From: Mesotaenium endlicherianum
Lineage: Eukaryota
Direction of reading: 5' to 3'
Assembly (NCBI GenBank): GCA_009602735.1
Contig: WELA01002297.1
Location: forward strand, 62,001 to 126,000
DNA: 64,000 nucleotides
Shown: in pieces, positions 783-57,055 of the stretch
Numbering within the stretch: the stretch's first letter is position 1
Layout: each line of letters opens with the position of its first letter
Program-made: the position numbers and the translations under genes
Notes under the pieces: generated by a model
What the model saw: the letters and a program-made list of their open reading frames with translations, nothing else
What the model was told of the DNA's origin: nothing
Databases searched by the model: none

Positions 783-1369
783 GACACCTAGGGATCTGAA
801 AGAGAGTCCCTTTCAGTTGAGAACGGCATCGGGACAGGTAACCAAGTCGTGTGGAATTACTCGCAAGCCTGTGAAGATCAAGTAAACTCGGAGAAACCTG
901 AGGAGGCGTCACTATGGATGGAATGCACAGTAACTGATGCAGAGAATTATGATATTCTCCTGGGGACAGAAGCACTGATTCCGTTGGGCATGGTTATTGA
1001 TCTGCGGAAGCAGAAAGTGACCTACCAGCAGACAGATAAGCTGTCAGCTGGAGAGATTCCTGTAAAAATGGTTTATTCAGGAGAAACAGATCAGAAGATG
1101 AAGGACCGCTGCGCCACTACTGACTATCCAGACGCTTACAACATTCATATGATAAGCGAGGAGACGGCCTACACCCGCATGAACATGCCAGCGCCATTGG
1201 TGTGGCAATCCAGAAGTATGAGTCAGCTGGAAACTGTGAGCAACATGGATCGCAGTCCGCAAAATTGCTTCCAGTGCCTTATCCAGTGACAAGCTCGTTG
1301 AACTTGATGCCAGGAGTGGAGCCATTGCCTCAAGCTACTGTTCAAATGGCGAATCCGTTTCGTGAAACT

Positions 1370-4616: not shown

Positions 4617-5361
4617 TGTAATGAATCAGTATATTAGTAGATATAATATTCATTTAAATGTGATAGTTAATTCAGTTCAGCCTGCTAAACTTTAGTTGGT
4701 AGTCAGTCTGCTGAACTTTAGTTAATAATCAGTCTGCTGGACTTTACATAATTATCAGTTAAATGACTCGGCTAAAAGCAGCAGGCTGAAGTCAACTAAA
4801 GTCAGCTTGCTGACACATTCTTTGACAGCCAGCTGACTTCCGTGCTCGGTAGCAGCGAACTGCCTTGATATGCATCTAAGTACCACCTGCTAGATGAATG
4901 GCCAGATGACATCCCCATGATGGATGGCTATTCGGGATGATGGGAGATGGCGGTGGATTTGGTTAACCGAGGTCCTACCAACGTGGTTAACTCCCGGGTA
5001 GGCGGTGCCATCGCACTGACCGTTGAACAGTAAACTCATTCCATGTACATATGCTAGGCATTGCTCTCGAGTTCGGCATTCAGAAACGAGGCCAACTCTC
5101 TTGTACAGCTTACTGAGAGAACTCTGAATCCAAGGCGAGAAGCCATTGATACGCACTGTCTTCTAACCTTGCTTATGTATGAGTTTACTGATTTGCATCA
5201 TTGATGCTAGTTTACTCGCATTTGACTTACGAGTATTACTCCCTGCTAGTGTATTGTCCTTTGCCGTTTAACTAGTTAACGGAAGTACCATAAAGATTAC
5301 TTGCTGATATAAAGATCTTTATTAATTGTTAATCGCCTATTTGGTAAGTCGATTCATTTCA
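4617..5361 (+). mobile_element. Solo LTR (family L1) with 5-bp TSD AGAGG
   Basis: TG..CA ends; AGAGG at 4612-4616 and 5362-5366. Removing it restores colinearity with copy B (~39810-39825). Confidence 0.95.
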
Positions 5362-5624
5362 AGAGGCGTTTGGTATTTTCTGACCCATCAAAGAAGCGTA
5401 GATCTATTTCCAAGGAAAAGCGACTAAAGAAACGGGCGACAGAGCCTAAGCGACAGGAGGAGCAAGCAGAGAAGCCTGCTGCCTCTCCACCCTGCAATCA
5501 GGCTGAAAACCTTGAGGGCCACGATGTGGGCAAAAAGCCCCCACCTGAACCCAAGAAGTAGCAGCTACTGGATGCTTTTGTTGGGGAGAAGCAGCCTGAA
5601 ACTGAGATTTTAACCATTGGGAAA

Positions 5625-8590: not shown

Positions 8591-8662
8591 CCCTAGCTGC
8601 TGAACCAGGAGATAAGAAGCTTTCAGCAAAAAGGCAGGGAAGCCTAAGTTGAAAGGGAGGGG

Positions 8663-10404
8663 TGTAAGGGAGACTGAAGATAAGCAAACTTATTAAAAAT
8701 TTCTATTAAGCATGAAGAATGTTGAAGAGATGAAGTGGTTGAGTGGGAAGCACTAAACGTTTGGATGCTGCACTTGCATGATCAGGTGGAGGAGGACCAG
8801 AAATGAGTCCACACCAAAGAGTCTGCCACCAACACACGTGCAAAGGTCGATCAACCCAGGGGATTTCTCACGTGCAGAGACGCACCGACACATCGACCAG
8901 GTCGAAGGCACACGTGCTGAGAAGCTATGCACGTGCCAAGGGTTCGACACTGTTAGGCACGACAGCTGTCGCGACTGCTATCCGTTTGACGGTGCCGCAC
9001 GCGCAGCGCTAGTCACGGCCGCCCAGGTACGGAAAGTCAGCACTGACTCACCGACCAAAGATAGACTTCAGGTCAGCCAGCGGTCAAGTCAACGTCATGA
9101 TCACCGAGAGGTGGTCATGGCATGTCAGTCCCCACACCCAGCGATGGGAAGGGATTTGCCAAGAAGGACTGCCAAAAGGCTGTGGGCGAGAAGCAGCCCC
9201 GAGTGCCAAGTCAGGCACGATGTGATTGGCTATGAAAACCGCCAGTCACCAGCCAAATAAGCACAACGACTGGCTGAAAGGCTAAGCAGTCACGCGCGAC
9301 AGTCGCGAGGCTTGCATGCAAGCTGAGTGACAATAGCTAGATTAGTTTGAAGAGCTGCTAGGCGAGGACGGCATGCAAAGCCAGCTGTGACTAAGCACTG
9401 GTATTCTCGAGAGAGAACAATGTGTGGTGCCTGCGAAAGGCACGAGTTCTGCGCAAAGATGCCTCATCCTTGCGTTTGTAGCTTTTGCTAAAGAAGCAGA
9501 AAGGAGAAAGAAGGAGCGCGAAGAGAAGGAGTTCCCAAGGGCGCAAGAAAACGGAGAATCCACGCCACTGCGGACACCTGAAGATCTCTTGGCACTATAC
9601 CATAGAAGTTAGAATTCAGGAGTTCCCAAGGTGGAATCTCACTGGTAGACAGAGGAGAACTTGCAGAACAGAATCTATTAGGAGATTAGCGCAGATTTGG
9701 ACAGAACACCACAAGTGTGCGAAGGGCATATAAATGGTGAGTAACTGTGTCAGTCCTAAGTTCTCAGAAGTCGCGAACAAGTCAAATTGCTGATAGCAAG
9801 AGCAGTTAAACAATTAAAAGCTCTCAGTGAGTAAGTGAGTGAGCCTAGTCTAGCAGTGAAGAACTGCTGAGGCGCGGTAGTGAGCGAAGAGTTCAAACCA
9901 GGCCAGCATAGATGTGCAGTTTCAGAGTTTTGTAAGCTGAGACTTGTGAAAGTTAAGCGAAAGCCGTGCAGGCGATTTCCTCTGAATCTGGCATTGTTTG
10001 TTAAGCTGCTTAGACGTGATTTCTGCAAACTACAAATTTGTTCATTCTGTTACCCCCAACTTGGGCATAAGCCTATCTGGAAGTAAGACTCTTCCGTCCT
10101 ACTGTAAGGAAGACTGAAGATAGACAAACTTTTTAAAAATTTATGTTAAGCATGAAGAATGCTGAAGAGATGAAGTGGTTGAGTGGGAAGCACTTAACGT
10201 TTGGATGCTGCACTTGCATGATGAGGTGTAGGAGGACTAGAAATGAGTCCACACCAAAGAGTCTGCCACCGACACACGTGCAAAGGTCGATCAACCCAGG
10301 GGATACCTCACGTGCAGAGATGCACCGACACATCGACCAGGTCGAGGGTACACGTGCTGAGAAGCTACGCACGTGCCAAGGGTCCGACACTGTTAGGCAC
10401 GACA
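8663..10404 (+). repeat. Split terminal repeat block B-A-B of copy A
   Basis: A 302-bp B segment occurs twice (8663-8964, 10103-10404) around a ~1.14 kb A segment. Palindrome CGACAGCTGTCG at 8960-8971. Confidence 0.92.
9729..9771 (+). promoter_or_regulatory. TATA box and predicted transcript 5' end (self-primer) in segment A
   Basis: TATAAA at 9729-9734. AAGTTCTCAGAAGT at 9758-9771 is the reverse complement of the sequence that follows the 5' A segment in copies B and C. Confidence 0.7.
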
Positions 10405-11354: not shown

Positions 11355-11398
11355 CTCTCTCCCCCCCTCTCTCTCTCTCTCACTCTCTCTCTCTCTCT
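11355..11398. repeat. (CT)n microsatellite
   Basis: Direct reading; imperfect CT run. Confidence 0.9.
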
Positions 11399-13575: not shown

Positions 13576-13599
13576 AATGGCAGACAAAGATTATCAACA

Positions 13600-25550: not shown

Positions 25551-27697
25551 CCTTCTTGCTGCAATGTGCACATATTTGCGCCTTGCTAGCAGACAGCTGC
25601 TTAGCATCAGAATAAGGACAATCTCTCTTCTGATGTCCTGATTTCCCACAATTCCAACATCCGTTTGCTGTTTCAGCAGTGTTGGCATGCTTAGCAAACC
25701 TATTGAAAGACCCGCTCTTCTTTTTAAAGTAAAAATTAGAGCTGGTGGCCTTAGGCGGAGAGGATTCCTCCCTCCTCTCTGGAGCCAAAAGCGTCCTGGA
25801 AGCCTCTTTATACCAGACTTTACCTTCCTTGACATTGCATGCTATCTCAGCAGCTTCGTCAATATCCCAGTCGATTCCGCGCTTTGCAGATAGATGCGGC
25901 CTGACTTCTCAATCTGTATCTTTGCCCAAACACAATAAGAAATTGTCAACCACTATTCTGGGCTCGTGGATTCCTTCATTCTTGGCAAGATCCACCAGTC
26001 TGGACTTAACCTCCATCACTGTCTCGTTCTTTTGACGAACAAAGTGCACACAGCGGTGCACCTTGAGACTGCGGTCCTCTGGGAACTTGATTTCAAGCAA
26101 TTTGAAGAAACGACGCAGACAATGCTCAACATCCAATTGGTCATCGCCAGCTTCCATATCTCTACAACAACTGGCCAACGCTTGCGCATGGCTTGATTCT
26201 GTAGAGGCACTATCGCCCTGCTGACCATTAAAAGGTGCGGCTCTACACGTTACTCGGTCCTGAGCATTGGCGATCTTTTTAGATAGCTCTGCACACACTC
26301 TACTCAATTTCGCGATAGATCCTGTATCATTCTCCTAAGTAGTCGCTCTTTGCTGACCCTCAGTGAGTTGCGTCATGGTATCCGCTAATTCTTCTGTTAG
26401 TGCAGTCAAGTCTACGCTCTCAACAGGTGCAACAGGCATTGCTCTTCCTGGAGACAAAGCGGACATGCGGGCTTTTGCAGCCTCTTTCTGGATTTTCAAA
26501 TCCCTAGCCTTCTTTTGCTCTCTAAATGCCCATTCCTGAGTACGGTCCTCATCCTTCCGGAAACTGGCGATAAAGAAACAAAGCATCCTTGCCCAAGTAC
26601 TAAACCAGACTCATAAATGCAAGACGAGCCCTTCCGGATCTTCTCAAAGAAATCAGCCCAGTAGATTTCATCAAACTCTTCGAAAGTGAGACTGTTGCCA
26701 CCGGTTCGTCCACTAAAGCACTTGGTAGACAACTTGAACTTAGGATTTTCATCCCTCTCATCACCAGCCACCTCAAAAGGTGACCAGTAAACACTGAATC
26801 TTACTCCAGCGTCTAGCGTTCTGCCCAAACCAGGTGCAAGATAATGCTCGCTATACAGATTCTCACCGTTTGCAGAGATTTGTCGAGCAGCGTCTCTCGA
26901 CGTATGGTCTCTTCTTGTGTAAGGTCATAGGTTTATAAGTGCATTTTTGAGTTTCATGAAAGTATATTTTGATTGCATAGTAGTGTAGAGTGCATTTTTG
27001 TGGTCATTTTGATATAAAGTTCATTGAATTTGCTCAAGTATTGAGAGAGTTATGGATTTCCGAAGTATAATTAGTTTTGAGGTCGGTTGACGACTGTCCT
27101 TAATTCGCGGTGAGCGCGACCGTCGGATTGACCGACAGCGTCGAGCGATCTGGCCCGTTAGAATGAACTCGAACCTTCACGTAAGTTCGGTTGACGCGGA
27201 GTGCCGACTAGGTCGATTTACCTAGAAGTTTCGGTTTAGCCTAGCGCGTCTAAGATAGAATATTCTAGTAATGTCGATGCATGTATGTGGACGTCAATTT
27301 AGCCCGACACGTCAGATTAGACTGATCTGGCTTTCTCACGAATATTCTGGAAGGGACGATTTGACGAACACTTAGGAAAATCCGTAGCTTCCTCCTAGGG
27401 AGGAGCACTTAGGCAGAAAATTATAAATAGGCATAACTTCTTTGTTTCTTATCGATTTTCACTTCTGTAAATTCCTACGGGTTTGTAATGACAAGGCCTT
27501 TCATCCCACATCATTTGTGAGCAGTTTCATGCCACTCAAAATATCAAGTAATTTTCCTAAGCTTTCTTAGCAATATGCCGCTGCACTCTTGAGTATGATT
27601 GCAACTAGCTTTGTTCCTCGTGAGTCACTACGCTTCCACTAGGGCACTCTGCCCCTTTCATCTGGTATCGGATCAGGCCTAGTTTGCATATTATATT

Positions 27698-28699
27698 ATG
27701 GAGTCGCAGCCGGCAGCTGGAGGAGGCGAACATGTCGAGCATGTTGAGCGCACGGGGCAACAGGCAGCACCAACAATGACCAGAGAGCAACAAGAGATGC
27801 AGGCGATGCTAAGACAAATGGCAAATGCAATTGGAGGAGAAGTCTACACCCAGTTTCAACAAAATATGCGCGCGGAGGTGGAGAGAATGGTGCGAGTTGT
27901 TATGGGGAACGCCGCTTCGACGAGTTCGGCACCTGCACCTGTTGTACCACCAATTCATGTTAACCCAGTGGTGCAACCAGTTATTCCACCCGCATCAGGA
28001 GTGCGTGCGCCTAAGCCTGAAGTTTATACTGGAGAGCGTGGATCGCCGCCTGTTCATCAATGGATTTTTGGAGTGAAGAAGTTTATGGAGTATTCTGCGC
28101 TTACGCCCGACAGGCAAGTCGCCTTTGTCATAACTTTGCTGCAGAAGAGTGCTGGAGCTTGGTATGAACGAGAAGAGCAGTTGTCTGGAGTTCCTGCTAC
28201 TGTTGATCAGCTATTTGAAGGCTTGAAGAGGCAATTTCAACCTATTGCACCCGAGGCTACCGCTCGAGATCTATTGGTGCGCCTTCGTTAACGAGCAAGC
28301 GTTCAGGAGTATGTTTCGCGCTTCAACGAGCTGGTGCTTCAATGCCCATCCATGCACGAGTCAGAGATGATGGACAAGTTCAAGAGGGGACTCAAGCCAA
28401 CTGTGGCCAAGGAAGTGGCGCTCAAGGACCCTACCAGTCTTGGAGAAATGATGGCATTGGCAACAAGGGTCGACGCTGTGGAGTATAGTCAGAGGCAGTG
28501 GGGCAGCCACAACTTTGGAGGATATCGACACTTTGGATCTCAAGCGCCAAGCACGAGTGTTCAAGGTCCAGTACCCATGGAGTTGGGACTTGTGCAGTAC
28601 CAGCGCAGGCAGCAGAATTTCAAGCCGAGAGGACCCTGCTATAGTTGCGGCAAGCTTGGACATCTGGCTCGAGACTGTCATGTGAAGGCGAAGCAACCT

Positions 28700-28729
<30 letters not shown>
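27698..28729 (+). pseudogene. Chromovirus gag (one in-frame stop at 28289-28291)
   Basis: PKPEVYTG..AGAWY..QFQP; PVPMELG; CCHC knuckle CYSCGKLGHLARDC. Confidence 0.9.
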
Positions 28730-32271
<3,542 letters not shown>

Positions 32272-32427
32272 NNNNNNNNNNNNNNNNNNNNNNNNNNNNN
32301 NNNNNNNNNNNNNNNNNNNNNNNNNNNNNNNNNNNNNNNNNNNNNNNNNNNNNNNNNNNNNNNNNNNNNNNNNNNNNNNNNNNNNNNNNNNNNNNNNNNN
32401 NNNNNNNNNNNNNNNNNNNNNNNNNNN
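32272..32427. other. Assembly gap (N run)
   Basis: Run of N covering the PPT and the start of the 3' LTR. Confidence 1.
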
Positions 32428-35400
32428 ATTTTTGTGGTCATTCTGATATAACGTTCATCGAATTTGCTCAAGTATTGAGAGAGTTATGGATTTCCGAAGT
32501 TTAATTAGTTTTGAGGTCGGTTGACGACTGTCCTTAATTCGCGGTGAGCGCGACCGTCGGATTGACCGACAGCGTCGAGCGATCTGGCCCGTTAGAATGA
32601 ACTCGAACCTTCACGTAAGTTCGGCTGACGCGGAGTGCCGACTAGGTCGATTTACCTAGAAGTTTCGGTTTAGCCTAGCGCGTCTAAGATAGAATATTCT
32701 AGTAATGTCGATGCATGTATGTGGACGTCAATTCGGCCCGACACGTCAGATTAGACTGATCTGGCTTTCTCACGAATAATCTGGAAGGGACGATTTGACG
32801 AACACTTAGGAAAATCCGTAGCTTCCTCCTAGGGAGGAGCACTTAGGCAGAAAATTATAAATAGGCATAACTTCTTTGTTTCTTATTAGTTTTCACTTCT
32901 GTAAACTCCTACGGGTTTGTAATGACAAGGCCTTTCATCCCACATCATTTGTGAGCAGTTTCATGCCACTCAAAATGTCAAGTAATTTTCCTAAGCTTTC
33001 TTAGCAATATGCCGCTGCACTCTTGAGTATGATTGCAACTAGATTTGTTCCTCGTGAGTCACTACGCTTCCACTTGGGCACTCTGCCCCTTTCATCTTGG
33101 GTCGTCAGCCCGCTCAGATGTCTCGCTATGTCGTGGACTCTGGCTTGAATCAAAGCCTTCCACAGGCTCCACGGGATGATAGAGTCTCCCACTCCTCAGC
33201 CGCATATACAGCTGAGTTTCCCCGGGTCCCCTTCCAGGTTGACCACCGGCAAACCTTACAGGTCTCAATCCCCAATTTGCTTGGGAATTCTTGTTCACCT
33301 GAACCAATCAACAAGTTCTCAGAAGTAGGACGGAAGAGTCTTGCTTCCACATAGGCTTACGCCCAAGTTGAGGGTAACAAAATGAACAAATTTGTGGCGT
33401 ACAGAAATCACGTCTAAGCAGCTTAACAAACAATGCCAGATTCAGAGAAAATCGCCTTCGCGACTTTCGCTTAACTTTCACAAGTCCCAACTTACAAAAT
33501 CCTAAAACTGCACATTCATGCTGGCCTGGTTTGAACTCTTCGCCCAACACCGCGTCTCAGCAGTTCTTCACTGCTTGGCTAGGCTGACTCAGTTCTTCAC
33601 TGAGAGCTCAACTGCTTTACTGCTCTTGCTATCAGCAATTCGACTTATGTGCGACTTCTGAGAATTTGGGACTAACACAATTACTCACCATTTTATATGC
33701 TCTTCGCAAACTTGTGGTGTTTTGTCCAAATCTGCGCTAATCTCCTAACAGATGCTATTTTGCAAGTTCTCTTCTGTCTACCAACGAGATTCCGCCTTGG
33801 GAACTCCTGAATCCTAACTTTATATGGTACAGTGCAAAGAGATCTTCAAGTGTCGGCAGCCGCGTGGATTCTCCGTTCTCTTGCGCCCTTGGGAACTCCT
33901 TCTCTTCGCGCTCCTTCTTCTTTCTCCTTTCTGCTCCTGCGCTCCTTCTGCTTCCTTAGCAAAGTTGTGCACGCAAGAATGAGGCAGCTTCGTGTAGGAC
34001 TCGTGCCTTTTGTAGGCACCACACATTGTTCTCTCTCAAGAATGCCAGTGCTTAATTACAGCTGGCCTTGCATGCCGTCCTCACCTAGCAGCTCTCAACT
34101 CATCCTAACACTGGTCACTTAGCTTGCATGCATGCCTCGTGACTATCGCGCGTGACTGCTCAGCCTTTTGGCTGGCAATTGTGCTTATATGGCTGGTGAC
34201 TGGCTGCGTACTCGTGGATCCAGCCAAATTGGCATTTGACTCCTCTACTGCATCTCGGCAATGACTTGGCTTGCATAGCCAATCACATCGTGCCTGACTT
34301 GGCACCCTGGGCTGCTCCCCGCCCATAGCCTTCCGGCTGACCCTTTTGACAAATCCCTTCCCATCCCTGAGTGTGGGGACTGACATACCATGACCACTTC
34401 TCAGTGACCATGACGTTGACTTGCCCGCTGGTTGACCTGACATCAGCCTTTGGTCGGTAAGTCAACGCTGACTTTTTTGTACTTGAGCGGCCGTGAGTTG
34501 CGCTGCGCGTGCGGCATCGTCAAACGAATAGCAGTCGCGACACCTTTTTTCTTGTGCAAAAGGACGTTAGTGATGAGATCATAGTGAAAGGTGGCAAGAT
34601 GTACATGGCGTTTGGGGATGTGAAGGATAAAAACAGAGTTAGCATTGACATCAACACCATGTATGAGAGGGTGGGGCATTATTGGACGTACAAACTTAGA
34701 AAGGATGGTGGAAGGTATCCGAATACGGCTTCTGTCCTTCTGCACATGGTGAAGTCAGGGAAGTATTATCCTCGTACCCACCATATTACACAAGGCGGCA
34801 GTGTCGTGCCTAACAGTGTCGGACCCTTGGCACGTGTGTAGCTTCTCAGCACGTGTGCCTTCGACCTGGTCGATGTGTCGGTGCGTCTCTGCACGTGGGA
34901 AATCCCCTGGGTTGATCGACCTTCGCACGTGTGTCGGCGGCAGACTCTTTGGAGTAGACTCATTTCTGGTCCTCCTGCACCTCATCATGCAAGTGCAACA
35001 TCCAAACGTTTTAGTGCTTCCCACTCAACCACTTAATCTCTTCAGCATTCTTCATGCTTAACAGAAGTTTCAAAAAGTTTGCCTATCTTCAATCTCCCTT
35101 ACAAAGACGAAAGAGTCTTACTTCCACATAGGCTTATGCCCAAGTTGAGGGTAACAGAATGAACAAATTTGTAGTTTGCAAAAATCACGTCTAAGCAGCT
35201 TAACCAACAATGCCAGATTCAGAGAAAATCGCCTTTACAACTTTTGCTTAACCTTCACAAGTGTCAGCTTACAAAACTCTGAAACTGCACATCTATGCTG
35301 GCCTGGTTTGGTCTCTTCGCTCAATACCGCGCCTCAGCAGTTCTTCACTGCTTGGCTAGGCTCACTCAGTTACTCACTGAGAGCTTTAACTGTTTAACTG

Positions 35401-36522
35401 CTCTTGCTATCAGCAATTCGACTTGTTCGCGACTCTTGAGAACTTAGGATTAATACAGTTACTCACCATTTATATGCCCTTCGCACACTTGTGGTGTTCT
35501 GTCCAAATCTGCGCTAATCTCTCAACAAATTCTATCCCGCAAGTTCTCCTCTGTCTACCAGTGAGATTCCACCTTGGGATCTCCTGAATTCTAACTTCTA
35601 TGGTATAGTGCAGAGAGATCTTCAGGTGTCGGCAGTGGCGTGGATTCTCCGTTCTCTTGCGCCCTTGGGAACTCCTTCTCTTCGCGCTTCTTCTCCTTTC
35701 TCCTTTCTACTTCTTTAGCAAAAACTACAAACGCAAGAAGGAGGCAGCTTTGTGCAAGACTCGTGCCTTTCGCAGGCACCATGCATTGTTCTCTCTGGAG
35801 AATTCCAGTGCTTAGTCACAGCTGGCTTTGCATGCTGTTCTCGCCTAGCAGCTCTCGAACCAATCTAGCCATTGTCACTCAGCTTGCATGCAGGCCTCGT
35901 GACTGTTGCGCGTGATTGCTTAGCCTTTCAGCCAACAGTTGTGCTTATGTGGCTGATGACTGGCGGTTTTCATAGCCAATCAAATCGTGCCTCGGGGCTG
36001 CTTCCCGCCCGCAGCCTTTCGGCTGACCTTCTTGGCAAATCCCTTCCCATGCCATGACCACCTCTCAGTGATCATGACGTTGACTTGACCGCTGGCTGAC
36101 CTGAAGACAGTCTTTTGGTCGGTGAGTCAATGCTGACTTTCCGTACCTGGGCAGCCGTGACTAGCGCTGCGCGCGTGCGGCAGCGTCAAAAGGGTAGCAG
36201 TTGCGACAGCTGTCGTGCCTAACAGTGTCGAACCCTTGGCACGTGTGTAGCTTCTCAGCACGTGTGCCTTCGACCTGGTCGATGTGTCGGTGCGTCTCTG
36301 CACGTGGGAAATCCCCTGGGTTGATCGACCTTTGCACGCGTGTCGGCGGCAGACTCTTTGGAGTAGACTAATTTCTGGTCCTCCTGCATCTCATCATGCA
36401 AGTGCAGCACCCAAACGTTTTAGTGCTTCCCACTCAACCACTTCATCTCTTCAGCATTCTTCATGCTTAACAGAAGTTTCAAAAAATTTGCCTATCTTCA
36501 ATCTTCCTTACACCCCTCCCTT

Positions 36523-39500
36523 TCAGCTTAGGCGTCCCTGCCTTTTTGTTGAAAGCTTCTTATCTCCTGTTCTGCGGCTAGGGGTTTGAGGAAGGCTGTC
36601 AGGACATTCCCAACGTCCTGCCATAATCTCCTCTTCACCAACGCAGAAAGTGTGCCAACGGGCACCACACTTATCGCAAGTTACCATTGCTTCTTGATCA
36701 TCCAATACTTTGCAACTGGCAGAAGGCATGGCCGGCACTAATTCCTCAGGCACAGCCCTAACCGTAGGACCAACATTCGGCAAATGGCACAGCGAGCAAT
36801 TCTGCACGTGATCTCTCATATTCTTGCCATCAGAACCTTCCAGTTCTAACACACCATTGTCCAATGCATGTTTCACGCGCAAGATCACTGCACGTGAACT
36901 GGTGTCGATGGTGGTCTTGGTCTGGCGCTTGCGGTAGACAAAGTCTCCTTCCTGGATCTGCGTCATTTGCAGGCGACAGCTCCCATCTCGCGTCTTAACG
37001 TAACGTTGCGTGTCTCTTTTCTGCGCAATTCTCAGGTTGTCCAGCGCGGCAGGCATCATGCGCTCAAATAGCACCTTGCGGCGTACCATCACCCTTAACA
37101 ACTCATCAGGATCGTCCAGGTTTTTCACCATTTCAATTTCCTGCTTGATGCTGCTGGGTACAACTGGACTTCTTCCAAACAGAATCTGATATGGCGAGAA
37201 ATTCGCCAAAGCTACTTGCTTGCTGAAACGGTAGCCCATAACTAGCCATGGTAGGGCCAGATCCCAATCCCGCTTGTCATGCTCAAGGCAAAACTTGCGT
37301 AAGGCAGACTTAATAGTTTGCACCGTCCGTTTTGCTAGACCATCTGCTTGCGGGTGGTCTCTTGATGTAGTGTGATGATTAATGAAGCATTTTTCCAAGA
37401 GTTTCTAAAAAGACCCTTGGAACTCAGACCCTTGGTCTGTCAGCACTTCTGCTGGAGCTCCATGACGCACAATCACATGGTTAAGGAATGCCTCCGCAGT
37501 CCCTAAGCTTTCCTTAGCGGTAGAGGAACGACCTCTATCCACTTAGAAAAATGCTCAATCATGACCATGATATACTTGTTACCTTGCTTGGACAGCGGTA
37601 GCTCACCTGCGAGATCGCAGCTCCAGCAATAGCCTAGGCCCATGATTGGCAAAGGTTGCAGGTGTGAATGTTGCTGTGTAAAACCAGCCTTGACCATATC
37701 ACATCTTTGACAGTCCTTGATCACATCTTCACACTGTTGTTTCATACCCCTCCACCAATAAGACAGCTCTAGAAGACTATATGTCTTCTTGACACCATAG
37801 TGCCTAGTGTTTTCATGCATTTCCTGCACGAGAGCTCGTCTCTTGGTAGGTTCTGGCACGACCTTCTCCTGTCCAGTTTCTTCAACTCTGAAGAGGTTGT
37901 TGCGTTTCTAGCAAAACCTTTTAGCGCAATGACTTACTTGGTCATTTTCTTTCAAGGATGTCCCCTCCAGATGGGTCCCTGTTTTCAACCAATGCATAGT
38001 GGCTTGATCTTTCCAGATCTCTGGACTGAACAACGGTAGGGGCTCAGCTTCACTTGACGCTACTATTCCAGCCATTTCGGCTAGACAAGCTGCCAACTCT
38101 GCTGAATTGCTCGGGTCTTTGTCTTCTCGAGCCCCTGTTCGGTCCTCTGAAGATGGGTCTGGGTTCCTGCTAAGTCCATTGGCGTCATTGTTAAGTACAC
38201 CTGCTCGGTGCACCACCGTCATCTAATACTCCTGAAGCTTAAGAGCCCAGCGAGCCAGCTTGCCGGTAAGATCTCCATTCTTCATCAGCCAAAGTAATGG
38301 CGAGTGATCTGTAATCAGCGAGAAAGGTCTTCCCCAAAGATACTCTCTGAAATGTGTAACAGCCCAAACCACTGCCAGCAGCTCTCCTTCATAGGACGAA
38401 TAGTTGCTCTCAGCTCGGTTGTTAGAGCGAGATGCATAGGCAATGACGTACTCCTCCCTTGGGCTTGCAGCTTGAGTGAGTACTGCGCCAATTCCTACAC
38501 GACTCCAGTCAGTGTTGAGGTTGAACGGCTTAGAGTAGTCAGGCGTTTGCAAAACTGGGGCTGTCACCAGCCTCTTTTTAAGCTCGTTCATGGCCTTCTC
38601 CTGGGCTTCTGTCCACACAAAAGGTACGTCCTTTTTCAGGAGTTCCTGTCAAGGGTTTAGCAATTCTGGTATAGTCCTTCACAAACTTGCGATAATATCC
38701 ACTTAGCTCTAGAATAGCTTTAAGCTTGAACACATTCGCAGGTGCAGGTATCTTCAAGATATCCTCAGTCTTTACAGCCTGAGGGGACATAGCATTGTTC
38801 CCAATCTCAAGTCCTAAGTAGAGCACGTGTGCCTCAAAGAACCTACACTTTCCAGGATGTAGCGTCATCTGGAATTTCTCCAGGTGCTGGAACACTTGCT
38901 CCAAGTGCTCGAGATGCTCTTTAATGGACTGGCTAAATACCACCACATCATCAATGTATGGTTTTGCAAAATCCAGTCCTTCTAGCACTTTATCCATTGT
39001 CCTCTGAAATATGGCAGGGGCATTTTTCAACCCAAATGGCATTAGTGTCCATTGCCAAAGTTCCCTTTGAGCCCAGAAAGCGGTCTTAACTTGATCTTCT
39101 GTGTTCACAGGGATCTGGTTGAAGCCTTGGCGCAGATCGATGATGCTGAACACCTTCCCGGTGGTGGCAATTGCGAAGATTCGCTCTGGCGTAGGCATCA
39201 CATAGCTATCTGGCCCCTTGTGAAGGTTCAGTCGCCTGTAATCTCCACACATACAAGTGGCAGTATAGTTGCCAGCTTCGTCCTTCTTAGCGACTACTAC
39301 TGTGGGAGCCCAATGCACTGAAGTTGATTTTTCAATCATGTGGAGTTTGTGCAACTCCTGGCAGGTTTTCTCCACACAATCCATTCTGCCTGACTGAGCT
39401 TATGCGGCCCAAGTCTGACTGGGTTATCCGTAGTTAGCGTGATTTCACACATACTGGCCGTGGTTCTGCCAATCTCCTCCTTAGTAAAAGCAAACACCTT

Positions 39501-39554
39501 GCGGTGCTTCTTGAGCAGCCTTTCTACTTGAGCTCTTTGTTGGGCTGAGACCAT
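36523..39554 (-). pseudogene. pol of copy B: RT, RNase H, DDE integrase, PHD finger (fragmented)
   Basis: ORFs 39336, 38578 (YIDD), 38223, 37908, 37503 and 36523 (HPQADGLAKRTV..CDKC..HTFC..WECPD). Confidence 0.93.
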
Positions 39555-41546
39555 TTTCCCAATGGTAAAAATCCCAGTTTCAGGCTGCTTTTCCCCAACA
39601 AAAGCGTCCAGTAGTTGCTACTCCTTGGGTTCAGGTGGGGGCTTTTTGCCCTCATCCTGGCCCTCAGGGTTTTCAACTTGATTGCTGGGTGGGGAAGTAG
39701 CAGGCTTCTCAGCTTGCTCCTCCTGTTGCTTAGGCTCTGCTGCCCGTTTCTTCATTCGCTTTCCCTTGGAAATAGACGGACGCTTCTCTGATGGGTCGGA
39801 AAATACCAAACGCCTTCTGATGGGCTGTTGCCGGAATCTCCGCTCATCGTTTGCTGTCCAGCTGGTGCCTGTTCCTCCTACCTCTCGCTGTGGGCAAGGA
39901 TTCTCCGGTGGCCATCCTGCTGGGTCAACTCTGGGGCTGATGGACCATCCCCAGTGTTGATTTATTGTAGCAAGGCGCTCGACCGTTGTACCAAACTCTT
40001 CTCCAAGTGGTGGCGTGATGGCCCATGACTGATGACTCAGCAACTGTTGTCGTTGTGCTTCAGCAACTCGCGCGTACACAGCATTTTTTGGTGTCAGGCG
40101 GCTTATAGTGCTTCTTAGCTTCACCAATTCTTTCTCAGAAACCGCTGGTGTTGAAGGAGCTGAATCATTCTTTCCCTTCGTTCCAAAGGTTGGAGAACGA
40201 GCCATAGGAATGTTAATTCCCAGTTCTCGGGCCCTGCGGTTCAACCCTTCTTCACTTCCTTCCGCAGTATTTCCATAATGGGTTGTGGCGGTGGGGCCAT
40301 AGTTCCTCTCGGAACTCCTTCCCTCTGGGCCACTCCTCGATGCTTAAAATAACGCATCACCATCCTCCTGAAGGGTGCATTTCCCTCGCGGGCCACTTTT
40401 CTTGGCCTGCTTGCGCGGCCTTGTGGCTTACCTGGTGTATGCTCCATCTTAGCAACGCAAGCAGATACCTCTGGTGGCAGCCGTTGCAGCTCCAATGGTG
40501 GTATCTCAGGGACTGATATACTTGCGATTGGCGTGCTGGATGTTGGCGAGCATAACTCCTGATATAAATCAGTTGGGTGCGGCCCCTCCTCATTCAAGTG
40601 GTTTGCCACCCATTTGTCTGTCCTCAGGTCCTGTAGGTTTAATTCAGGAGTAGGGAAGCGAGGAATTTCTTCCCCTTCACCATCTTCAAGGGTGAGCGAT
40701 GGTAAGTCAAACTCAGGTAGGTCAAGCAGTCTTGACTTGGCCTCCTCTGTCCCCTCCACTCCTGGTGGCTGTGGCTCTTCATCGCTTCTTGTATTAAGCT
40801 TTGCCATGGTGATGATGGCTGACTGCAGCGCTTGTGTAGCTTGGGCGACCTCTTCTTCCTTGCGCCAGGGTGCATCTGCTTCCAGCAGCTGCTCCATAAT
40901 CTGCCTGGTGATAGACTCAGCAGTATGACAGGCTGATCCTCCTGGTTGTCCTTTGACCTTTGGCTCTGGACTCAGCAAAAAATTTTTGGGCAATTTCTTG
41001 TCCAGATCTTCTTTGCAATCTTCAATGATCACCTCCAAACATATCTTTTTTGCAGACCCTCCAGAGTCACCTGACTTTTCACTGCCTTCTTCAGCTCATT
41101 CTCCCATATAGCATGTTCGCTCATTGCTTGCTGGGTTGGTTCCAAAAGACTCCTCTGGTATTCAGTTGAAATAATCTTCAGTCTTCTCTGGTGCTCCAGA
41201 ATAATTGTCTGGATGTGCTGGTTCCAAAGAGGGCTCTTTGTGCCGTCGATGGATCTCCCCTGTTTCTGAGTCTGCTCCATAGAAGCTGCTTCCAAGCCCT
41301 GGACAGGATGATAAACATTGCTGTCCATCTTCCCAACTGCTCGAGTCCTCCTGCCAATAGTCACCTTCTCCTCTACCCCTCGGGCTATAATCAGGATCCT
41401 CCTCTGGACCTTCACTTTTCAGTGAGCCCTCAAATATGATTGCCATAACCAAATCTGATCAGACTTGCTGTTGCTCAGATGCCTTCTCAAGGACTTGCAC
41501 CTTATCCTTAGCGCTTGCTGGTGTAAGCTTTTGCTCCACTTCCTCA

Positions 41547-43235
41547 CTAGATAGTTGTCCTCCATCTTCCCCATGTGCCTCTTCTCCATCCCTGAAGAAA
41601 GATGTGGAGATCATTTGCAGTTGATGAGGGTAGCTCATAGTCCTGCTCTTCTTTAGCCAGACAAATAAGGATTTTGTCCTCCTCTGCTGCTGCCATTTCT
41701 GGCAATGGCGTCCCAAATATTTGACTGCGCGTGGCCTTTTTCAGCCAAGATGACGTATCACCTTCCACACCTGGCGGTGGTGTCGGTGCGTGAGGCGCCT
41801 GCTCTTCCATGGGCACATCTATTTCTTCAAAATGTGCTTTTACCTTTGCAATCTGGTTTTCCAGCCGCTTCTTCACTTCACTGCACCTTGTCAATTCGGC
41901 CATCCCGGCTTCTTTGCGTGCAGCTCTGGTACTCTGAACTCCTCCTTCCGCGATTCTGCGTTCTGGGAGCCCTTCCTTTGGCAGTTGTGCTCTCCTGCCA
42001 GCCCTCTGATCTGAGGTAGGCACCACATGTTCTCCAATTATCATCACTGGTGGCTCTGGCATAGGCTTGTGAGTGGAAGTCAGTTGTTGCCATGTCATAA
42101 TAATTTCTAGGAGCCATGTCATAGTATGATGCCCAATCATATTGCTGAAGATCTTTGCAGCTTCAAGTTGTCCTACAGCACTCACAATTGCTTGTACGAC
42201 CCTTTTTGGAACTCCCAAACAGCATCCTTTCTCCATGGCGTATGGCTCACGCCATTGTGCTTCTGGGTTATTTTTGTTCTTGACCAATCCTGGCCCTCCA
42301 TCAACAAAAGCTCTGGACTCTGGGAATGCTGTGAAAGTCGGCAAAACCCCCCTGGGTTGCCCTAACTCATTGACAGCACACCGTGGGTAAACATCATCTC
42401 TGGTTACCGATTTAGTGAATAGCCCCAGTCTATACCCCACGGTCTTGGCATCCAGTGGGCGCCTGATGATCATCCCCGTGGCTCTCGCCACCTCCATAGG
42501 TATGCCATTTGTCCATAAAATCCTGGCCATGTGTGATAGCCCTCCATATTTGGCATCATTGATCAGCACGTGATGACCCAATATTGAATCAAAGATTAGC
42601 CATGGCTCTCCTGGCTTCATCTGGCTGTAGTCATGACCCGGGTGCATGTTCTCAATCACAAACACTGGTGGATGGCGACACTGACGTTCCCGCAGCAGCC
42701 TGATGATGTCCACCATTCTTCCCCAATACTGTGCCCGTGGGTCATTGAATCCCCTCCTGTTGCCAGCTTGAGAGAAAGGTTGACAAGGGAATCCAGCAAA
42801 GATCCAATCAAACTTGCAAAGATACAAGTGCTCAGGCTTCACCTCCAAAATATCTCCTCCAGCTATGCGCTCTATGTGCTGTGGCGCAGGTACCAAATTC
42901 TTGAAATGGTACATCTTTTGCATATCCTGCATAGCAGCTTTGAAAGCTGTAAAAGCATTGTCGTCGTTGTCCACATAGATGACTTTGGATACCTTGATCC
43001 CCCGCTGAATCAGAGACATAGTCCCAGATTCCAATCCAGCGAATAACTCCAGCACCACTACTCCAATTTCGCGAAACGGATTCGCCATTTGAACAGTAGC
43101 TTGAGGCAATGGCTCCACTCCTGGCATCAAGTTCAACGAGCTTGTCACTGGATAAGGCACTGGAAGCAATTCTCGCGGACTGCGATCCATGTTGCTCATA
43201 GTTTCCAGCTGACTCATAATCTTGGGTTGCCACAC
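41547..43235 (-). CDS. Retrotransposon-encoded C5-cytosine DNA methyltransferase (domain ~42110-43065 uninterrupted)
   Basis: VVLELFAGLESG, IFAGFPCQPFSQAG (catalytic PC), FVIENM, SHMARILWTN, WREPYAMEK..LG, KIFSNMIG in canonical order within one 562-aa ORF. Confidence 0.93.
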   Translation of the reverse strand: MWQPKIMSQLETMSNMDRSPRELLPVPYPVTSSLNLMPGVEPLPQATVQMANPFREIGVVVLELFAGLESGTMSLIQRGIKVSKVIYVDNDDNAFTAFKAAMQDMQKMYHFKNLVPAPQHIERIAGGDILEVKPEHLYLCKFDWIFAGFPCQPFSQAGNRRGFNDPRAQYWGRMVDIIRLLRERQCRHPPVFVIENMHPGHDYSQMKPGEPWLIFDSILGHHVLINDAKYGGLSHMARILWTNGIPMEVARATGMIIRRPLDAKTVGYRLGLFTKSVTRDDVYPRCAVNELGQPRGVLPTFTAFPESRAFVDGGPGLVKNKNNPEAQWREPYAMEKGCCLGVPKRVVQAIVSAVGQLEAAKIFSNMIGHHTMTWLLEIIMTWQQLTSTHKPMPEPPVMIIGEHVVPTSDQRAGRRAQLPKEGLPERRIAEGGVQSTRAARKEAGMAELTRCSEVKKRLENQIAKVKAHFEEIDVPMEEQAPHAPTPPPGVEGDTSSWLKKATRSQIFGTPLPEMAAAEEDKILICLAKEEQDYELPSSTANDLHIFLQGWRRGTWGRWRTTI

Positions 43236-43429
43236 AATGGCGCTGGCATGTTGATGCGGGTGTAGGCCGTCTCCTCGCTGATCATATAGTTGTTGTAAGC
43301 CTCTGGATAGTCAGTAGTGGCGCAGCAGTCCAGCATCTTCTGATCTGTTTCTCCTGAACAAACCATTTTTACAGGAATCTCTCCTGCTGGCTGCTTATCT
43401 GTCTGCTGGTAGGTCACTTTCTGCTTCCG

Positions 43430-45855
43430 CAAATCAATAACATGCCCAATGGGATCAGTGCTTCTGGCCCCAGGAGAATATCATAATTCTCTGCATCAGT
43501 TACCGTGCATTCCATCCATAGTGACGCCTCCTCAGGTTTCCCCGAGTTTACTGTGATCTTCACAGGCTTGCGGGTAATTCCACAAGACTTTGTTACCTGC
43601 CTTGATGCCGTTTTCAGCTAAAATGGGCTCTCTTTCAGATCCCTAGGTGTCAGACCCAGAGCTTTCACAGCTCGCTTCCCCAGGATGACTGGCTGTGCGC
43701 CTGTATCCAGGAGGATGTTGGGGGCTGGCCAATTGTTGAACTTCATGGCACCATCCTTGTTCTGCACCCTCACAGTGCTGAAATTGGTAGGCAGCGAGGC
43801 GCTATTGGCACCTTCCTCAGCTGTATCCAGCTGTTGTCCGGCTTCTTCAATCGTGAAAGGGTAAGTAATGTGCAAATCAACGAGAGAAATCAACGGAGCA
43901 TGCTGAATTCGATATTCCACCAGAGCTCTCAACTTCTCCAAAGAAATACTAAATGTCTTGCGATTCTGGCCTGTCGCTGCTGGGCAATTTCATTCTCATC
44001 CAGGGTAATCCGAAAGGTCTGAGGAAGCTTCCCAGCGTTCCTAGGCACCAATCGGTCATGATCTGCCCTCTCAGCTGCTGTTGCAGTTACAGCCTTCTCA
44101 GGCACCAACTTCCCTAGACAATTTTTTCAGCGACATCTGCATCATAGTAGTCATTGGGCGCTTTTAGTTTTGCAAATTGAGCTTTCAACTCAGCAATCTC
44201 AGCACTCATAGCATCATACTTTTAATGACCCTTGCGGTTACCGAAATTCTCCTTTCCTTTCTTTTTACCCTTATCTGCTTCTTTCGTAGCAGCGTTAGCC
44301 CATGGTGGCTTTAAATTCGGGTTCTTAGACCAACACTCATCTTCTGAGTGTCCCTTCTTGCTGCAATGTGCACATATCTGCGCCTTGTTAGCAGACAGTT
44401 GCTTAGCATCAGGATAAGGACAATCTCTCTTCCGATGTCCTGATTTCCCGCAATTCCAACATCCCTCTGCTGTTTCAGCAGTGTTGGCATGCTTAGCAAA
44501 CCTATTGAAAGACCTGCTCTTCTTTTTGAACTGCAGATTAGAGCTATCGGCCTTAGGCGGAGAAGATTCCTCCCTCCTCTCTGGCGCCATAAGCGTCCTA
44601 GAAGCCTCCTTATACCAGACTTTACCTTCCTCGACACAACGTGCTATCTCAGCAGCTTCGCCGATATCCCAGTCGATTTCGCGCTTGGCAGATAGATGCG
44701 GCCTGACTTCTCGATCTGTGTCTTTGCCCAAACACAACAATAATTTTTCAGCCACTATTTTGGGCTCGTAGATTCCTGCATTCTTGGCAAGATCCACCAG
44801 TCTGGACTTAACCTCCATCACTGTCTTGTTCTTTTGACGAACAAAGTGCACACAGCGGTGCACCTTGAGATTGCGGTCCTCTGGGAACTTGATTTCAAGC
44901 AATTTGAAGAAACGACGCAGACAATGCTCAGCATCCAATTGGTCATTGCGAGCTTCCATATCTTTACGGCAACTGGCCAACGCTTGCGCATGGCTTGACT
45001 TTGTACAGGCACTATCGCCTTGCTGACCATTAAAAGGTGCTGCTCTGCGCGTTACTCGCTCCTGAGCATTAGCAATCTTTTCAGACAGCTCTGCACACAC
45101 TCTACGCAATTTTGCGACAGATCCTTCATCATTCTCCTCAGTAGCCGCTCTTTGCTGACCCTCAGTGAGGTGTGTCATGGCATCTACTAATTTTTGTGTT
45201 AGTGCAGTTAAGTCTACGCTCCCTAGCCTTCTTTTGCTCTCCAAATGCCCATTCCTGAGTAAGGTCCTCATCCTTTCGGAGTTGGCAATGAAGCAACAAG
45301 GCATCCTTGTCCAAGTATGAAACCAGACTTATAAACGCAACAAATTGAGTATATGAGGAGTCCTTCCGGATCTTCTCAAAGAAATCAGCCCAGTAGATTT
45401 CATCAAACTCTTCGAAAGTGAGACTGTTGCCACCGGTTCGTCCACTAAAGCACTTGGTAGACAACTTGAACTTAGGATTTTCATCCCTCTTATCACCAGC
45501 CACCTCAAAAGGTGACCAGTAATCACTGACTCTTACCCCAGCGTCTAGCGTTTTGCCCAAACCAGGTGCAAGATAACGCTCGCTATACGGGTTCCACGTT
45601 TGCAGAGATTTGTCGAGCAGCGTCTCCCGACGTATGGTCTCTTCTTGGGTCGTCAACCCGCTCAGATGTCTCACTATGTCGTGGACTCTGGCTTGAATCA
45701 AAGCCTTCCACAGGCTCCACGGGATGATAGAGACTCCCACTCCTCAGCCGCATATACAGCTGAGTTTCCCCGGGTCCCCTTCCAGGTTGACCACCGGCAG
45801 CCCTTACAGGCCTCAATCCCCAATTTGCTTGGAAATTCTTGTTCACCTGAACCAC
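43430..45855 (-). pseudogene. gag (two CCHC knuckles) and aspartic protease of copy B
   Basis: CWNCGKSGHRKRDC and CAHCSKKGHSEDEC in ORF 44222; ILLDTGAQPVILG in ORF 43618; frameshifted. Confidence 0.88.
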
Positions 45856-45862
45856 TCAACCG

Positions 45863-45876
45863 AAGTTCTCAGAAGT
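45863..45876 (-). promoter_or_regulatory. Self-priming primer-binding site (Tf1-like)
   Basis: ACTTCTGAGAACTT directly follows segment A and is complementary to the sequence ~29 nt after the TATA box in A (46205-46218, one mismatch; exact in copy A at 9758-9771). No TGG tRNA-type PBS at the boundary. Confidence 0.75.
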
Positions 45877-48306
45877 AGGACGGAAGAGTCTTACTTCCAC
45901 ATAGGCTTATGCCCAAGTTGAGCGTAATAAAATGAACAAAATTGTAGTTTGCAAAAATCACGTCTAAACAACTTAACCATCAATGCCAGATTCAGAGAAA
46001 ATCGCCTTCACGGCTTTCGCTTAACTTTCACAAGTCTCAGCTTACAAATCTATGAAACTGCACATCTATGCTGGCCTGGTTTGAACTCTTCGCTTAATAC
46101 CGCGCCTCAGCAGTTCTTCACTGCTTGGCTAGGGTCACTTAGTTACTCACTGAGAGCTTTAACTGTTTAACTGCTCTTGCTATCAGCAATTTGACTTGTT
46201 CGCGACTTTTGAGAACTTAGGACTGACACAGTTACTCACCATTTATATGCCCTTCGCACACTTGTGGTGTTCTGTCCAAATCTGCGCTAATCTCCTAATA
46301 GATTCTGTTCTGCAAGTTCTCCTCTGTCTACCAGTGAGATTCCACCTTGGGAACTCCTGAATTCTAACTTCTATGGTACAGTGCAAAGAGATCAGGTGTC
46401 GGCAGAGGCGTGGATTCTCCGTTCTCCTGCGCCCTTAGGAACTCCTTCTCTTCGCGCTCCTTCTCCTTTCTCCTTTCTGCTTCTTTAGCAAAAACTGCAA
46501 AAGCAAGAATGAGGCAGCTTTGTGCAAGACTCGTGCCTTTCGCAGGCACCATGCATTGTTCTCTCTCGAGAATGCCAGTGCTTAGTCACAGCTGGCTTTG
46601 CATGCCGTCCTCGCCTAGCAGCTCTCAAACCGATCTAGCCATTGTCACTCAGCTTGCATGCAGGCCTCGTGACTGTTGCGCGTGATTGCTTAGCCTTTCA
46701 GCCAACAGTTATGCTTATGTGGCTGATGACTGGCGATTTTCATAGCCAATCAAATCGTGCCTGACTTGGCACTCGGGGCTGCTTCCCGCCCACAGCCTTT
46801 CGGCTGACCTTCTTGGCAAATCCCTTCCCATGCCATGACCACCTCTCAGTGATCATGACGTTGACTTGACCGCTGGCTGACTTGAAGTCAAGCTTTTGGT
46901 CGGTGAGTCAATGCTGACTTTCCGTACCTGGGCGGCCGTGACTAGCGCTGCGCGTGCGGCACCGTCAAAAGGGTAGCAGTCGCAACAGCAGGGCTGTTAA
47001 GTTGGCGAGAGACGAGTCGATGTTCATCATGTTGGCCCGGCCACAAGACACAAGGATAGAAGACGTGTACCGTGTATTTTTGAACTATGAGGGACCTATA
47101 TCTGACATGCGTGGCGGCAAGTATTACAATGCGAGGGGGCCAGTGCTTGGCGAAGCTGAAGGGAATTTCGAGACGCCTGAATGTGGACGCAAGGCACGGC
47201 CATCCCGAAGGACAAGTACCTCAGCCCTCGATTCCTGAGATAGACATGATTACTTAGTAATTTGTGGCGCTTGTGTCTTCTGTACTGTAGCAGTATTAGC
47301 CAGCCACTCTCGCGATGTTCACAGACGCAATGGTTGCAGTCACGCTGCAGTACAATTTCGATGCAGTTTCAAATTCATGGTGACGGTTTTTGGGTTTGGT
47401 GTCGATGCCTTTGGTGTTTGTCATGTAGTGGTGTCGATGCGATGCTGTCGTGCGATGTCGTCTTGTGAGGGCCAATTCGTCGCCCCTTCACAAGATTGAA
47501 AATCCACACTGATCGAATATGAGAGTAGAACCAATATGTATGGTAGTTTATTGTCGTCAGTAAGGCGCCCCTCACGTAACTCTTGTGAGGGGGAATTCAA
47601 TAAGGCCCTTTGCTCGTGTGAGCGCTGGCCCGTACGCGTTCGAAATCGGAGATTTGCCACGCGAAAGCGTTCGTCGTGAACGCTTTCTCTGTGCGGCCCC
47701 AGTGCGGCCCGCCCTTTCGCGACCGCCATAAATTAGGGCTTGGCCATAACTTATTCCTCTTCGCTTTTGCTGAGGGAGTGCGTCCTTAGGGCGCTTCTCG
47801 TGAGCGGCCATGGCGAGGAGGAGCGAGGCGGAGCCTCGCCTGGGCCGCGAGGTAGCCCGCCATGGGGTCGTGGGAGAGGGTGCTCTTCCTCGCTAGCAGG
47901 GTTCGTGGGGTGGAAAGGTCGGGAGCGCCTGCTGCTGGGCAGCCATGGCCGCTCGTCGTTGCAGGCGGCCATGGCCGCCTGCCAGTTATGAGGGTGTTAG
48001 AGAGAGAGAGAGGGGTTAAGGGGGAGGAGGCATGGTGGAGGGAGGGAGGGAGGGAGGGTCGTTAGCGTCGACGTCGAGCGTCGACGGCGTTCGCGCTGTT
48101 TTGACGCCTTAATTTGTCGCGATCGTTCGGCGGGTCTGTGAGGGGATGACAACATTGAACGAGTATGTATGGTAGTTTTTTGTATGATGGTTTATCAGTA
48201 TGAGAGACGAGTGTTGATCCACACCAGAACGGAACAATACATACCGAGGTACAGAAATCGCAAGCGTGTATTTTGCGTTTGTAAACAAAAAGCTTTTACC
48301 GCTCTT

Positions 48307-56922: not shown

Positions 56923-57008
<86 letters not shown>

Positions 57009-57009
57009 N

Positions 57010-57055
<46 letters not shown>

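Follow-up and report, generated by a model that had tools for sequence, protein, structure and literature searches.

The stretch of DNA analyzed here (the window) comprises 64,000 nucleotides of Mesotaenium endlicherianum (assembly GCA_009602735.1, contig WELA01002297.1, positions 62,001 to 126,000 of the forward strand); all coordinates below are positions within it. Three copies of one Ty3/gypsy retrotransposon family were found. The complete one, copy B, occupies 46987..34802 on the minus strand. Copy A (783..10404, plus strand) is truncated at its 5′ side by the long terminal repeat (LTR) of another element, and copy C (25551..34542, minus strand) runs from its A1 repeat, which starts at 34542, through the primer binding site into gag and is truncated at 25551. 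A repeat search and self-BLAST, with the junctions read directly, revealed that copy B lacks the two full terminal LTRs of a conventional Ty3/gypsy element. In element orientation its layout is A-internal-B-GC-A-B, with A of about 1.1 kb and B of 302 nt, so that the 5′ end carries A only and the 3′ end B-GC-A-B. The outer termini are TGTTG...CGACA, and CTGC stands immediately outside both of them (46991..46988 and 34801..34798, by direct reading in element orientation) as a 4-bp target-site duplication. A preliminary description of the locus had proposed this arrangement, with TGTYG..CGACA ends, and the repeat map and the junctions agree with it.

Read from its 5′ end, copy B (all features on the minus strand) begins with A1 (45877..46987), the sole 5′ repeat, which starts with TGTTGCGAC and ends with CGTCCT according to the repeat map, direct reading and alignment. 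Within A1 lie a TATA-like box, CATATAAATGG (46239..46249), a putative promoter element kept in all four aligned A copies, and a 14-nt complement of the primer site (46205..46218), which is the predicted RNA start and self-primer. The primer binding site itself, ACTTCTGAGAACTT, is at 45863..45876, and its first two nucleotides (AC) overlap the A repeat boundary. The coding part consists of gag with a CCHC zinc knuckle (44222..45328; Pfam zf-CCHC, E 1.4e-5), a weakly matching aspartic protease (43618..43989; Pfam Asp_protease_2, E 5.5e-4, under the curated cut-off), an uninterrupted open reading frame (ORF) of 587 amino acids for a C5 cytosine DNA methyltransferase (41547..43310; Pfam DNA_methylase, E 2.6e-17), about 1.9 kb in several frames that matched no Pfam family (39618..41546), reverse transcriptase (RT; 38578..39399; Pfam RVT_1, E 7.9e-29), RNase H (38223..38648; Pfam RT_RNaseH, E 8.5e-38), the zinc-binding domain of integrase with the start of the DDE core, including its first D (37503..37907; Pfam Integrase_H2C2, E 1.6e-15, a partial rve match and direct reading), and the remaining integrase core with a C-terminal PHD finger (36523..37404; Pfam PHD, E 1.7e-5, and direct reading).

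The polypurine tract, GAAAGGGAGGGG (36513..36524; identical in copy A at 8651-8662), lies directly 5′ of the TG that opens B1 (36211..36512; 302 nt, TGTAAGG...CGACA, by repeat map and direct reading). A GC dinucleotide (36210..36209) separates B1 from A2 (35104..36208), and the end of B, the GC and the start of A together form a perfect palindrome, CGACAGCTGTCG (36204..36215), a predicted internal integrase site at which cleavage would take place. The terminal repeat B2 (34802..35103) adjoins the end of A2 without a spacer and ends in CGACA; the 3′ target-site duplication (34798..34801) follows. An Rfam search of 33000-48000 gave no match.

The Pfam domains follow one another on the minus strand as zf-CCHC, Asp_protease_2 (weak), RVT_1, RT_RNaseH and Integrase_H2C2 with rve, which is the gypsy order of gag followed by protease, RT, RNase H and integrase. 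The coding region of copy B is split into at least 10 minus-strand frames, so this copy is old and dead. The rve match is partial (E 1.3e-3) because a frame break divides the core. The first D of the DDE core is readable in copy B and the second in copies A and B. An E stands exactly 35 residues past the second D in copy A, and the same position is K in copy B; thus, copies A and B have each lost one of the three D, D35E residues. By these residues the integrase is of the DDE kind, with its catalytic positions kept at the level of the family. A tyrosine recombinase domain was found in none of the 90 stop-to-stop ORFs of at least 60 amino acids on both strands of 34700-47100 (E ≤ 0.1), and the claim of a DDE integrase without such a recombinase is confirmed by this profile scan.

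The repeat order A1-internal-B1-A2-B2, in which the internal B1/A2 junction carries the information for both outer ends, is shared with PAT, Ngaro and DIRS-like elements. Those elements encode a tyrosine recombinase; in the present one the integrase is of the DDE type, the termini are TG...CA, a 4-bp duplication flanks the insertion (n = 1), and there is no recombinase. DIRS-type insertion is not known to leave a target-site duplication. The layout being a hallmark of tyrosine-recombinase retroelements, the element could be a chimera with DIRS-type repeats that was inserted in trans by the recombinase of a DIRS or Ngaro element, its own integrase being irrelevant; according to the accessible part of one report, DIRS elements that carry a DNA methylase and have such a layout exist in other lineages (PMC5890265). 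We regard this as very improbable, since TG...CA ends with a 4-bp duplication are the signature of a DDE integrase, the catalytic positions of the integrase are kept in the family, none of the 90 ORFs encodes a tyrosine recombinase, and the 64-kb window showed no DIRS element.

The methylase ORF (41547-43310) is the sole long uninterrupted frame of the broken copy B, and its counterpart in copy A is degraded. PCQ and ENV-like motifs were seen by eye. Against PDB chains, phmmer gave weak matches to the bacterial M.HaeIII and M.HhaI (E 2.5e-5 and weaker); no DNMT3 chain was among the 24 matches up to E = 10, and plant DRM chains scored E 0.3-0.8. A search of a protein database among proteins of similar length returned 28 matches to bacterial-type enzymes with 12-24% coverage, and the same ORF had no match among the longer proteins of that search. 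The nearest methylase cluster in the protein atlas belongs to Streptophyta. The integrase C-terminus (36523-37404) is a PHD finger, not a chromodomain; in the atlas, the nearest clusters that have PHD, and in some cases rve as well, come from Chlorophyta and Mollusca.

The other two copies show where the family ends. At its 3′ end copy A has B1 (8663-8964), GC, A2 (8967-10102) and B2 (10103-10404), all on the plus strand, and copy C has the A-only 5′ end; both features were part of the preliminary description, and both stood up to direct reading. The 3′ flank of copy A is unrelated to that of copy B, and so is the 5′ flank of copy C. Both 5′ ends (copies B and C) read TGTYGCGAC and both 3′ ends (copies A and B) read GGCACGACA, beside these unrelated flanks, and none of the four ends falls at the reverse-transcription boundaries (TGTAAGG / CGTCCT). 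Four of four ends at the same nucleotides next to different flanks mean that these are independent insertions of a unit that transposes in permuted form. Copy A is interrupted by a solo LTR (4617-5361) and copy C by a conventional gypsy element (26918-33094). Conventional LTR elements thus occur in the same window; the permuted layout is a trait of this family.

In copy B the two B repeats are 3.3% divergent and the two A repeats 5.6%, and repeats of different copies differ by 6.2-8.0%; the two B repeats of copy A are 6.6% apart, no nearer than the between-copy values. The closer repeats within copy B would fit repeats that are made identical at every insertion. Copies A and B have diverged by about 9% and their junctions are identical. 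The B-A-B block is thus present in two diverged copies, which makes a misassembly at a single locus unlikely.

An origin of the layout outside replication, from a rearranged master locus or an assembly error spread by segmental duplication while the true family has normal LTRs, was weighed against these data. The three copies examined are all old (3-7% between their own repeats) and all lie within 64 kb, as such an origin would have it. The stretch is present in four DNA runs from one sample, which possibly supplied the assembly itself and so do not count as independent evidence. In one of them a 330-nt Logan contig equals 34502-34831 without a difference and spans the 3′ end and its flank. 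Contigs of DNA run X1 were mapped at a likeness of at least 85, with 15 of 129 joints listed, and other contigs of the organism also join the B end to the A start. The flanks differ (A from B at the 3′ side, B from C at the 5′ side) and change at exactly the same terminal nucleotides, the junctions of copies A and B are identical at a divergence of about 9%, the B repeats of copy B are nearer to each other than to those of copy A, and the same layout is reported for KnitGypsy-Dnmt3 in the figure legend of PMC5890265. A non-replicative origin has, in our estimate, only a slight probability.

The landmarks of reverse transcription lie elsewhere than the inserted ends. B starts at TG straight after the polypurine tract in both copies where this can be read, and A terminates where the primer site begins in both 5′ ends. 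That the tract adjoins B and the primer site adjoins A had been stated before; we correct the type of the primer site, which is not tRNA-like and appears to be self-priming. The complement of the site inside A is a perfect 14 nt in the A2 of copy A and has 1-2 mismatches in the three other A copies, and none of 2000 shuffles of A reached a 14-nt complement (the maximum was 11). It lies 30-31 nt downstream of the conserved TATA box. We infer that the RNA starts inside A, at a predicted position about 345 nt ahead of the A end (46218 in the A1 of copy B). In the minimum-energy fold of the predicted copy C RNA, nt 4-14 are paired with the primer site; they are not paired with it in copy B, which has a mismatch. 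A tRNA primer was considered and rejected: the 22 nt that follow A lack a TGG, and the window contains no tRNA gene. A tRNA site further downstream was rejected because those 22 nt would then join the LTR, which is not seen.

Self-priming Ty3/gypsy elements are known from Tf1/Sushi and from the plant Tcn1 group, as the accessible part of a survey describes (Neumann et al., 2019, PMC6317226). Like these, the Mesotaenium element lacks a tRNA-type primer site and has a predicted RNA 5′ stretch complementary to the site after U5; unlike it, they have conventional LTRs.

With a polypurine tract before B, a primer site after A and an RNA start inside A, the standard strand transfers yield BA-internal-BA. 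The LTR defined by reverse transcription is then predicted to be B+GC+A, and the inserted ends lie inside that LTR, at the palindrome. In the sense of reverse transcription, A1 holds the 3′ part of U3 plus R-U5. This LTR of B plus A, with the integrated ends inside it, was already part of the preliminary description, and the landmarks and the 12-nt palindrome uphold it. The choice of A alone as the LTR, with B as a copy of the 3′ untranslated region, was rejected, as it leaves B2 unexplained and also fails on the coincidence of the repeat boundaries with the polypurine tract and the primer site. The conventional Ty3/gypsy element has TG...CA at these boundaries, whereas here TG...CA is found at the A start and the B end; both have a short target-site duplication (4-6 bp expected; CTGC here, n = 1).

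The two kinds of internal junction differ in character. The B/A junction, CGACA-GC-TGTCG, is a perfect 12-nt palindrome in copies A and B. In the whole window the pattern CGACANNTGTYG is restricted to the two B/A junctions (4 strand-matches against 0.22 expected). The CA-GC-TG palindrome resembles the LTR-LTR junction of retroviral circles. The A/B junction has no spacer and reads CGTCCT-AC-TGTAAGG in copy A and CGTCTT-TGTAAGG in copy B; what distinguishes them is precisely the initial two letters of the primer site, present in copy A and not in copy B. Variable removal of the primer before the ends are joined would give this difference. In terms of reverse transcription, A2/B2 joins the U5 end directly to the U3 start, the sequence that the LTR-LTR circle junction of a BA-internal-BA molecule would have.

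In the accessible parts of two reports, HIV-1 integrase cuts a palindromic LTR-LTR junction in vitro (PMC1905944) and the integrase of prototype foamy virus cleaves 2-LTR circles (PMC1180852). The likeness to the cleavage in those reports is a CA...TG palindrome that a DDE integrase cuts, here presumably, into integration-competent ends. There are two differences from the retroviral systems as they appear there. The retroviral palindrome arises just on circularization and the circle is a side product, whereas here the palindrome is permanently inside the LTR. The junction made by circularization (A end to B start) is, in the present element, not the one that would be cut.

On these features we propose, with even confidence for and against, that the finished DNA joins its two ends and that integrase then cuts the B/A palindrome and inserts the whole permuted molecule. 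Transcription would begin some 345 nt ahead of the A1 end and stop in or just after A2. Minus-strand synthesis would be primed by the RNA's own 5′ end, as in Tf1, and the two usual strand transfers would give a linear BA-internal-BA. Host ligation of its blunt ends (the A end and the B start) into a 2-LTR circle, or template switching from end to end, would create the A/B junction. Integrase would nick after CA on both strands of one B/A palindrome, 2 bp apart, which would leave two recessed CA-3′OH ends with 2-nt 5′ overhangs in one complex. Both ends would be inserted with a 4-bp stagger and the GC overhang would be lost. Recessed CA-3′OH ends are the normal substrate of a DDE integrase, and the predicted TG...CA ends, 4-bp duplication and loss of GC match what is observed.

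The permutation must be regenerated in each cycle, because a parent of the form A-internal-B-A-B still yields BA-internal-BA. Circularization followed by cutting is the simplest account of a permutation that recurs at every transposition, and it may be the right one. The broader possibility, to which we give somewhat less than even credence, is a lineage of LTR elements with a DDE integrase in which the 2-LTR circle is the obligate substrate, the attachment site has moved to an internal palindrome and each insertion is a circular permutation, with B2 possibly serving as the terminator of A2.

The idea that the element circularizes and is then cut at one internal B/A site had been put forward in the preliminary description; its structural premises hold, and the idea is partly supported. 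The 2-LTR circle has two identical B/A sites, so insertions of the form A-B-A-internal-B are expected as well. We considered instead that the permuted linear DNA is made directly in reverse transcription, as has been proposed for DIRS, PAT and Ngaro, with no circle or internal cleavage; for example, an RNA from A1 into B2 could undergo extra priming or template switches, and integrase would insert an ordinary linear substrate. This would account for A...B-A-B being the sole form seen, PAT and Ngaro have split direct repeats of exactly this layout, and the outer termini are ordinary integrase ends. We think it unlikely. With a primer site that follows A1, a polypurine tract that precedes B1 and a start in A, the standard transfers give BA-internal-BA. 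A DNA that ends at the B end needs a minus-strand primer site after B, one that begins at the A start needs a plus-strand primer before A, and GGCACGACAGC / TGTCGC, the sequence found at this place, lacks both a purine-rich run and complementarity to a tRNA-like 3′ end.

Several points count against the proposal that the ends are joined and the palindrome then cut. Circles, extrachromosomal reads across the junction and cleavage products were not seen, and the mechanism rests on anatomy. The form A-B-A-internal-B was found in none of the three informative copies (chance 1/8 if the two sites are equally likely), and the published case, as far as its figure legend goes, is likewise A...B-A-B only (PMC5890265). 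The target-site duplication is a single instance (n = 1; copy B alone has both ends within the window), with a chance of about 1/256. A plain loss of 2 bp would explain the two-letter difference at the A/B junctions just as well (n = 2). The three copies are without exception old and broken, and there is no sign of present activity of the family. Among the X1 joints listed, the spacer between B end and A start is AT in one contig and AC in another, not GC, and in two contigs the spacers are related but longer (13 and 22 letters in all). Spacers of that length would not form a cleavable palindrome and are a misfit with a simple model of palindrome cleavage. The yield of RNA runs X5, X8 and X11 was 15, 69 and 31 reads, most of which are partial and stem from relatives; the start and poly(A) sites are predictions.

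The spacer variants could be sub-family differences, re-joined cut sites or head-to-tail neighbors, and we cannot tell which. We take TGTAA to be the poly(A) signal of chlorophyte algae. It may be speculated that B2 sets the B start (TGTAA) right after A2 and that only A-internal-B-A-B copies then make terminally redundant RNA. This speculation covers which copies can found new ones, not which insertions form.

The layout has been reported once in print, as far as our searches found. The legend of Fig. 4c in de Mendoza et al. (2018, Nat Commun 9:1341; PMC5890265) describes KnitGypsy-Dnmt3 of Klebsormidium nitens with DIRS-type repeats and Gypsy domains, and this legend was all that literature searches for permuted or split-repeat integrase elements returned. 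The earlier supposition that such an arrangement was undescribed for a gypsy element does not stand, as the legend reports it (PMC5890265). Its accessible part leaves the layout unexplained and gives no ends, duplications, primer sites or mechanism, and as far as our searches found, the anatomy and mechanism are not yet described. By the wording of the legend, the two elements are alike in Gypsy-type pol, a C5 DNA methyltransferase in the polyprotein region, the order A-coding-B-A-B and a host of the green lineage. They differ in the methylase, which is termed Dnmt3-related in KnitGypsy-Dnmt3 and in Mesotaenium weakly matches M.HaeIII and M.HhaI, with no Dnmt3 found by simple search. Transposon methylases are called a divergent clade in the accessible text (PMC5890265).

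For standard LTR finders the layout poses a difficulty. Programs that look for two full LTRs with TG/CA tips, as in the pipeline of PMC6317226, would miss or mis-annotate such families. The accessible part of that survey states that LTR-FINDER rules were used (two LTRs, TG/CA termini), so permuted elements would have been missed in it (PMC6317226).

The proposed mechanism, if true, would have wider consequences. If an inserted form can come solely from an LTR-LTR junction molecule, nature would supply a counter-example to linear integration. The use of an internal palindromic site would then be within the evolutionary reach of a DDE integrase, and the mechanism would explain how a "DIRS-like" repeat layout arises without a tyrosine recombinase. 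To our knowledge, it has been accepted for forty years that the linear reverse transcript is what retroviruses and LTR retrotransposons integrate, LTR-LTR circles being dead ends, and we know of no other studied retroelement in which the 2-LTR circle is more than a dead-end by-product. With its C5 DNA methyltransferase and PHD finger, the element also bears on the interplay of transposons with the chromatin marks of the host.

Relatives of the element were seen in the sequencing runs. Summed contig depth, which is not copy number, was about 35-42 thousand over integrase, 23-38 thousand over RT and 180-660 over most of the methylase region; over most of 40012-42555 it was about 100 times under that of RT and integrase. 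Single contigs over the methylase region had a depth of about 60-90. This suggests that most relatives are without the methylase insert or are different there. Over 35772-36195, the first ~440 nt of A2, the summed depth was about 10 times under that of B and of the 3′ part of A; within A the 5′ portion seems to be sub-family-specific, and B and R-U5 widely shared. The RNA reads of X5 and X8 match just the last ~35 nt of A (45874-45908, minus strand) with unrelated sequence on either side, and this short piece before the primer site seems to be kept in more distant, expressed relatives. A metagenome scan with RT gave 80 loci at 32-41% identity. Thirteen of the loci of at least 4.5 kb had direct repeats, 11 of which were end overlaps (collapsed LTRs), and these loci are uninformative on the ends. 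None of them had a methylase or gag (the PHD part was not matched), and a scan of viral contigs gave no match.

Further retroelements lie in the window. The gypsy element nested in copy C (26918-33094, plus strand) has LTRs with TGTAAGG...TTTCA ends that are 97.8% alike over 670 bp, and it is flanked by a 5-bp TCTTG duplication. Its primer site, TGGTATCGGATC, is tRNA-type and begins two letters past the LTR; presumably it resembles the initiator-Met type. An assembly gap (N run 32272-32427) lies over the start of its 3′ LTR. B and this conventional gypsy LTR both begin with TGTAAGG, which hints that the B start could be the ancestral LTR tip.

The solo LTR in copy A (4617-5361, plus strand) has TG...CA ends and a 5-bp AGAGG duplication and belongs to another family, with a 745-bp LTR. 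Two 3′ LTRs of this family were found at 1-782 (plus strand) and 63016-63760 (minus strand), both preceded by the same 36 nt of internal sequence with a hairpin-like TGTTGTCG-AGG-CGACAACA; the truncation of copy A at 783 is due to one of them.

A copia element at 15951-21356 (minus strand) has 464-bp LTRs that are 97% alike and an intact pol ORF of 1063 amino acids, whose best database matches are 35-50% identical, most of the named ones being seed-plant copia proteins. Fragments of a second copia RT (11436-13016) and of a gypsy RT/RNase H (13368-14904) are also present. Dinucleotide microsatellites at 56933-57049 and 11354-11398 match in inverted orientation, with a single N at 57009. The segment 61189-61366 weakly matches (74-76%) a piece of 150-190 nt of A and is possibly the LTR remnant of a distant relative.

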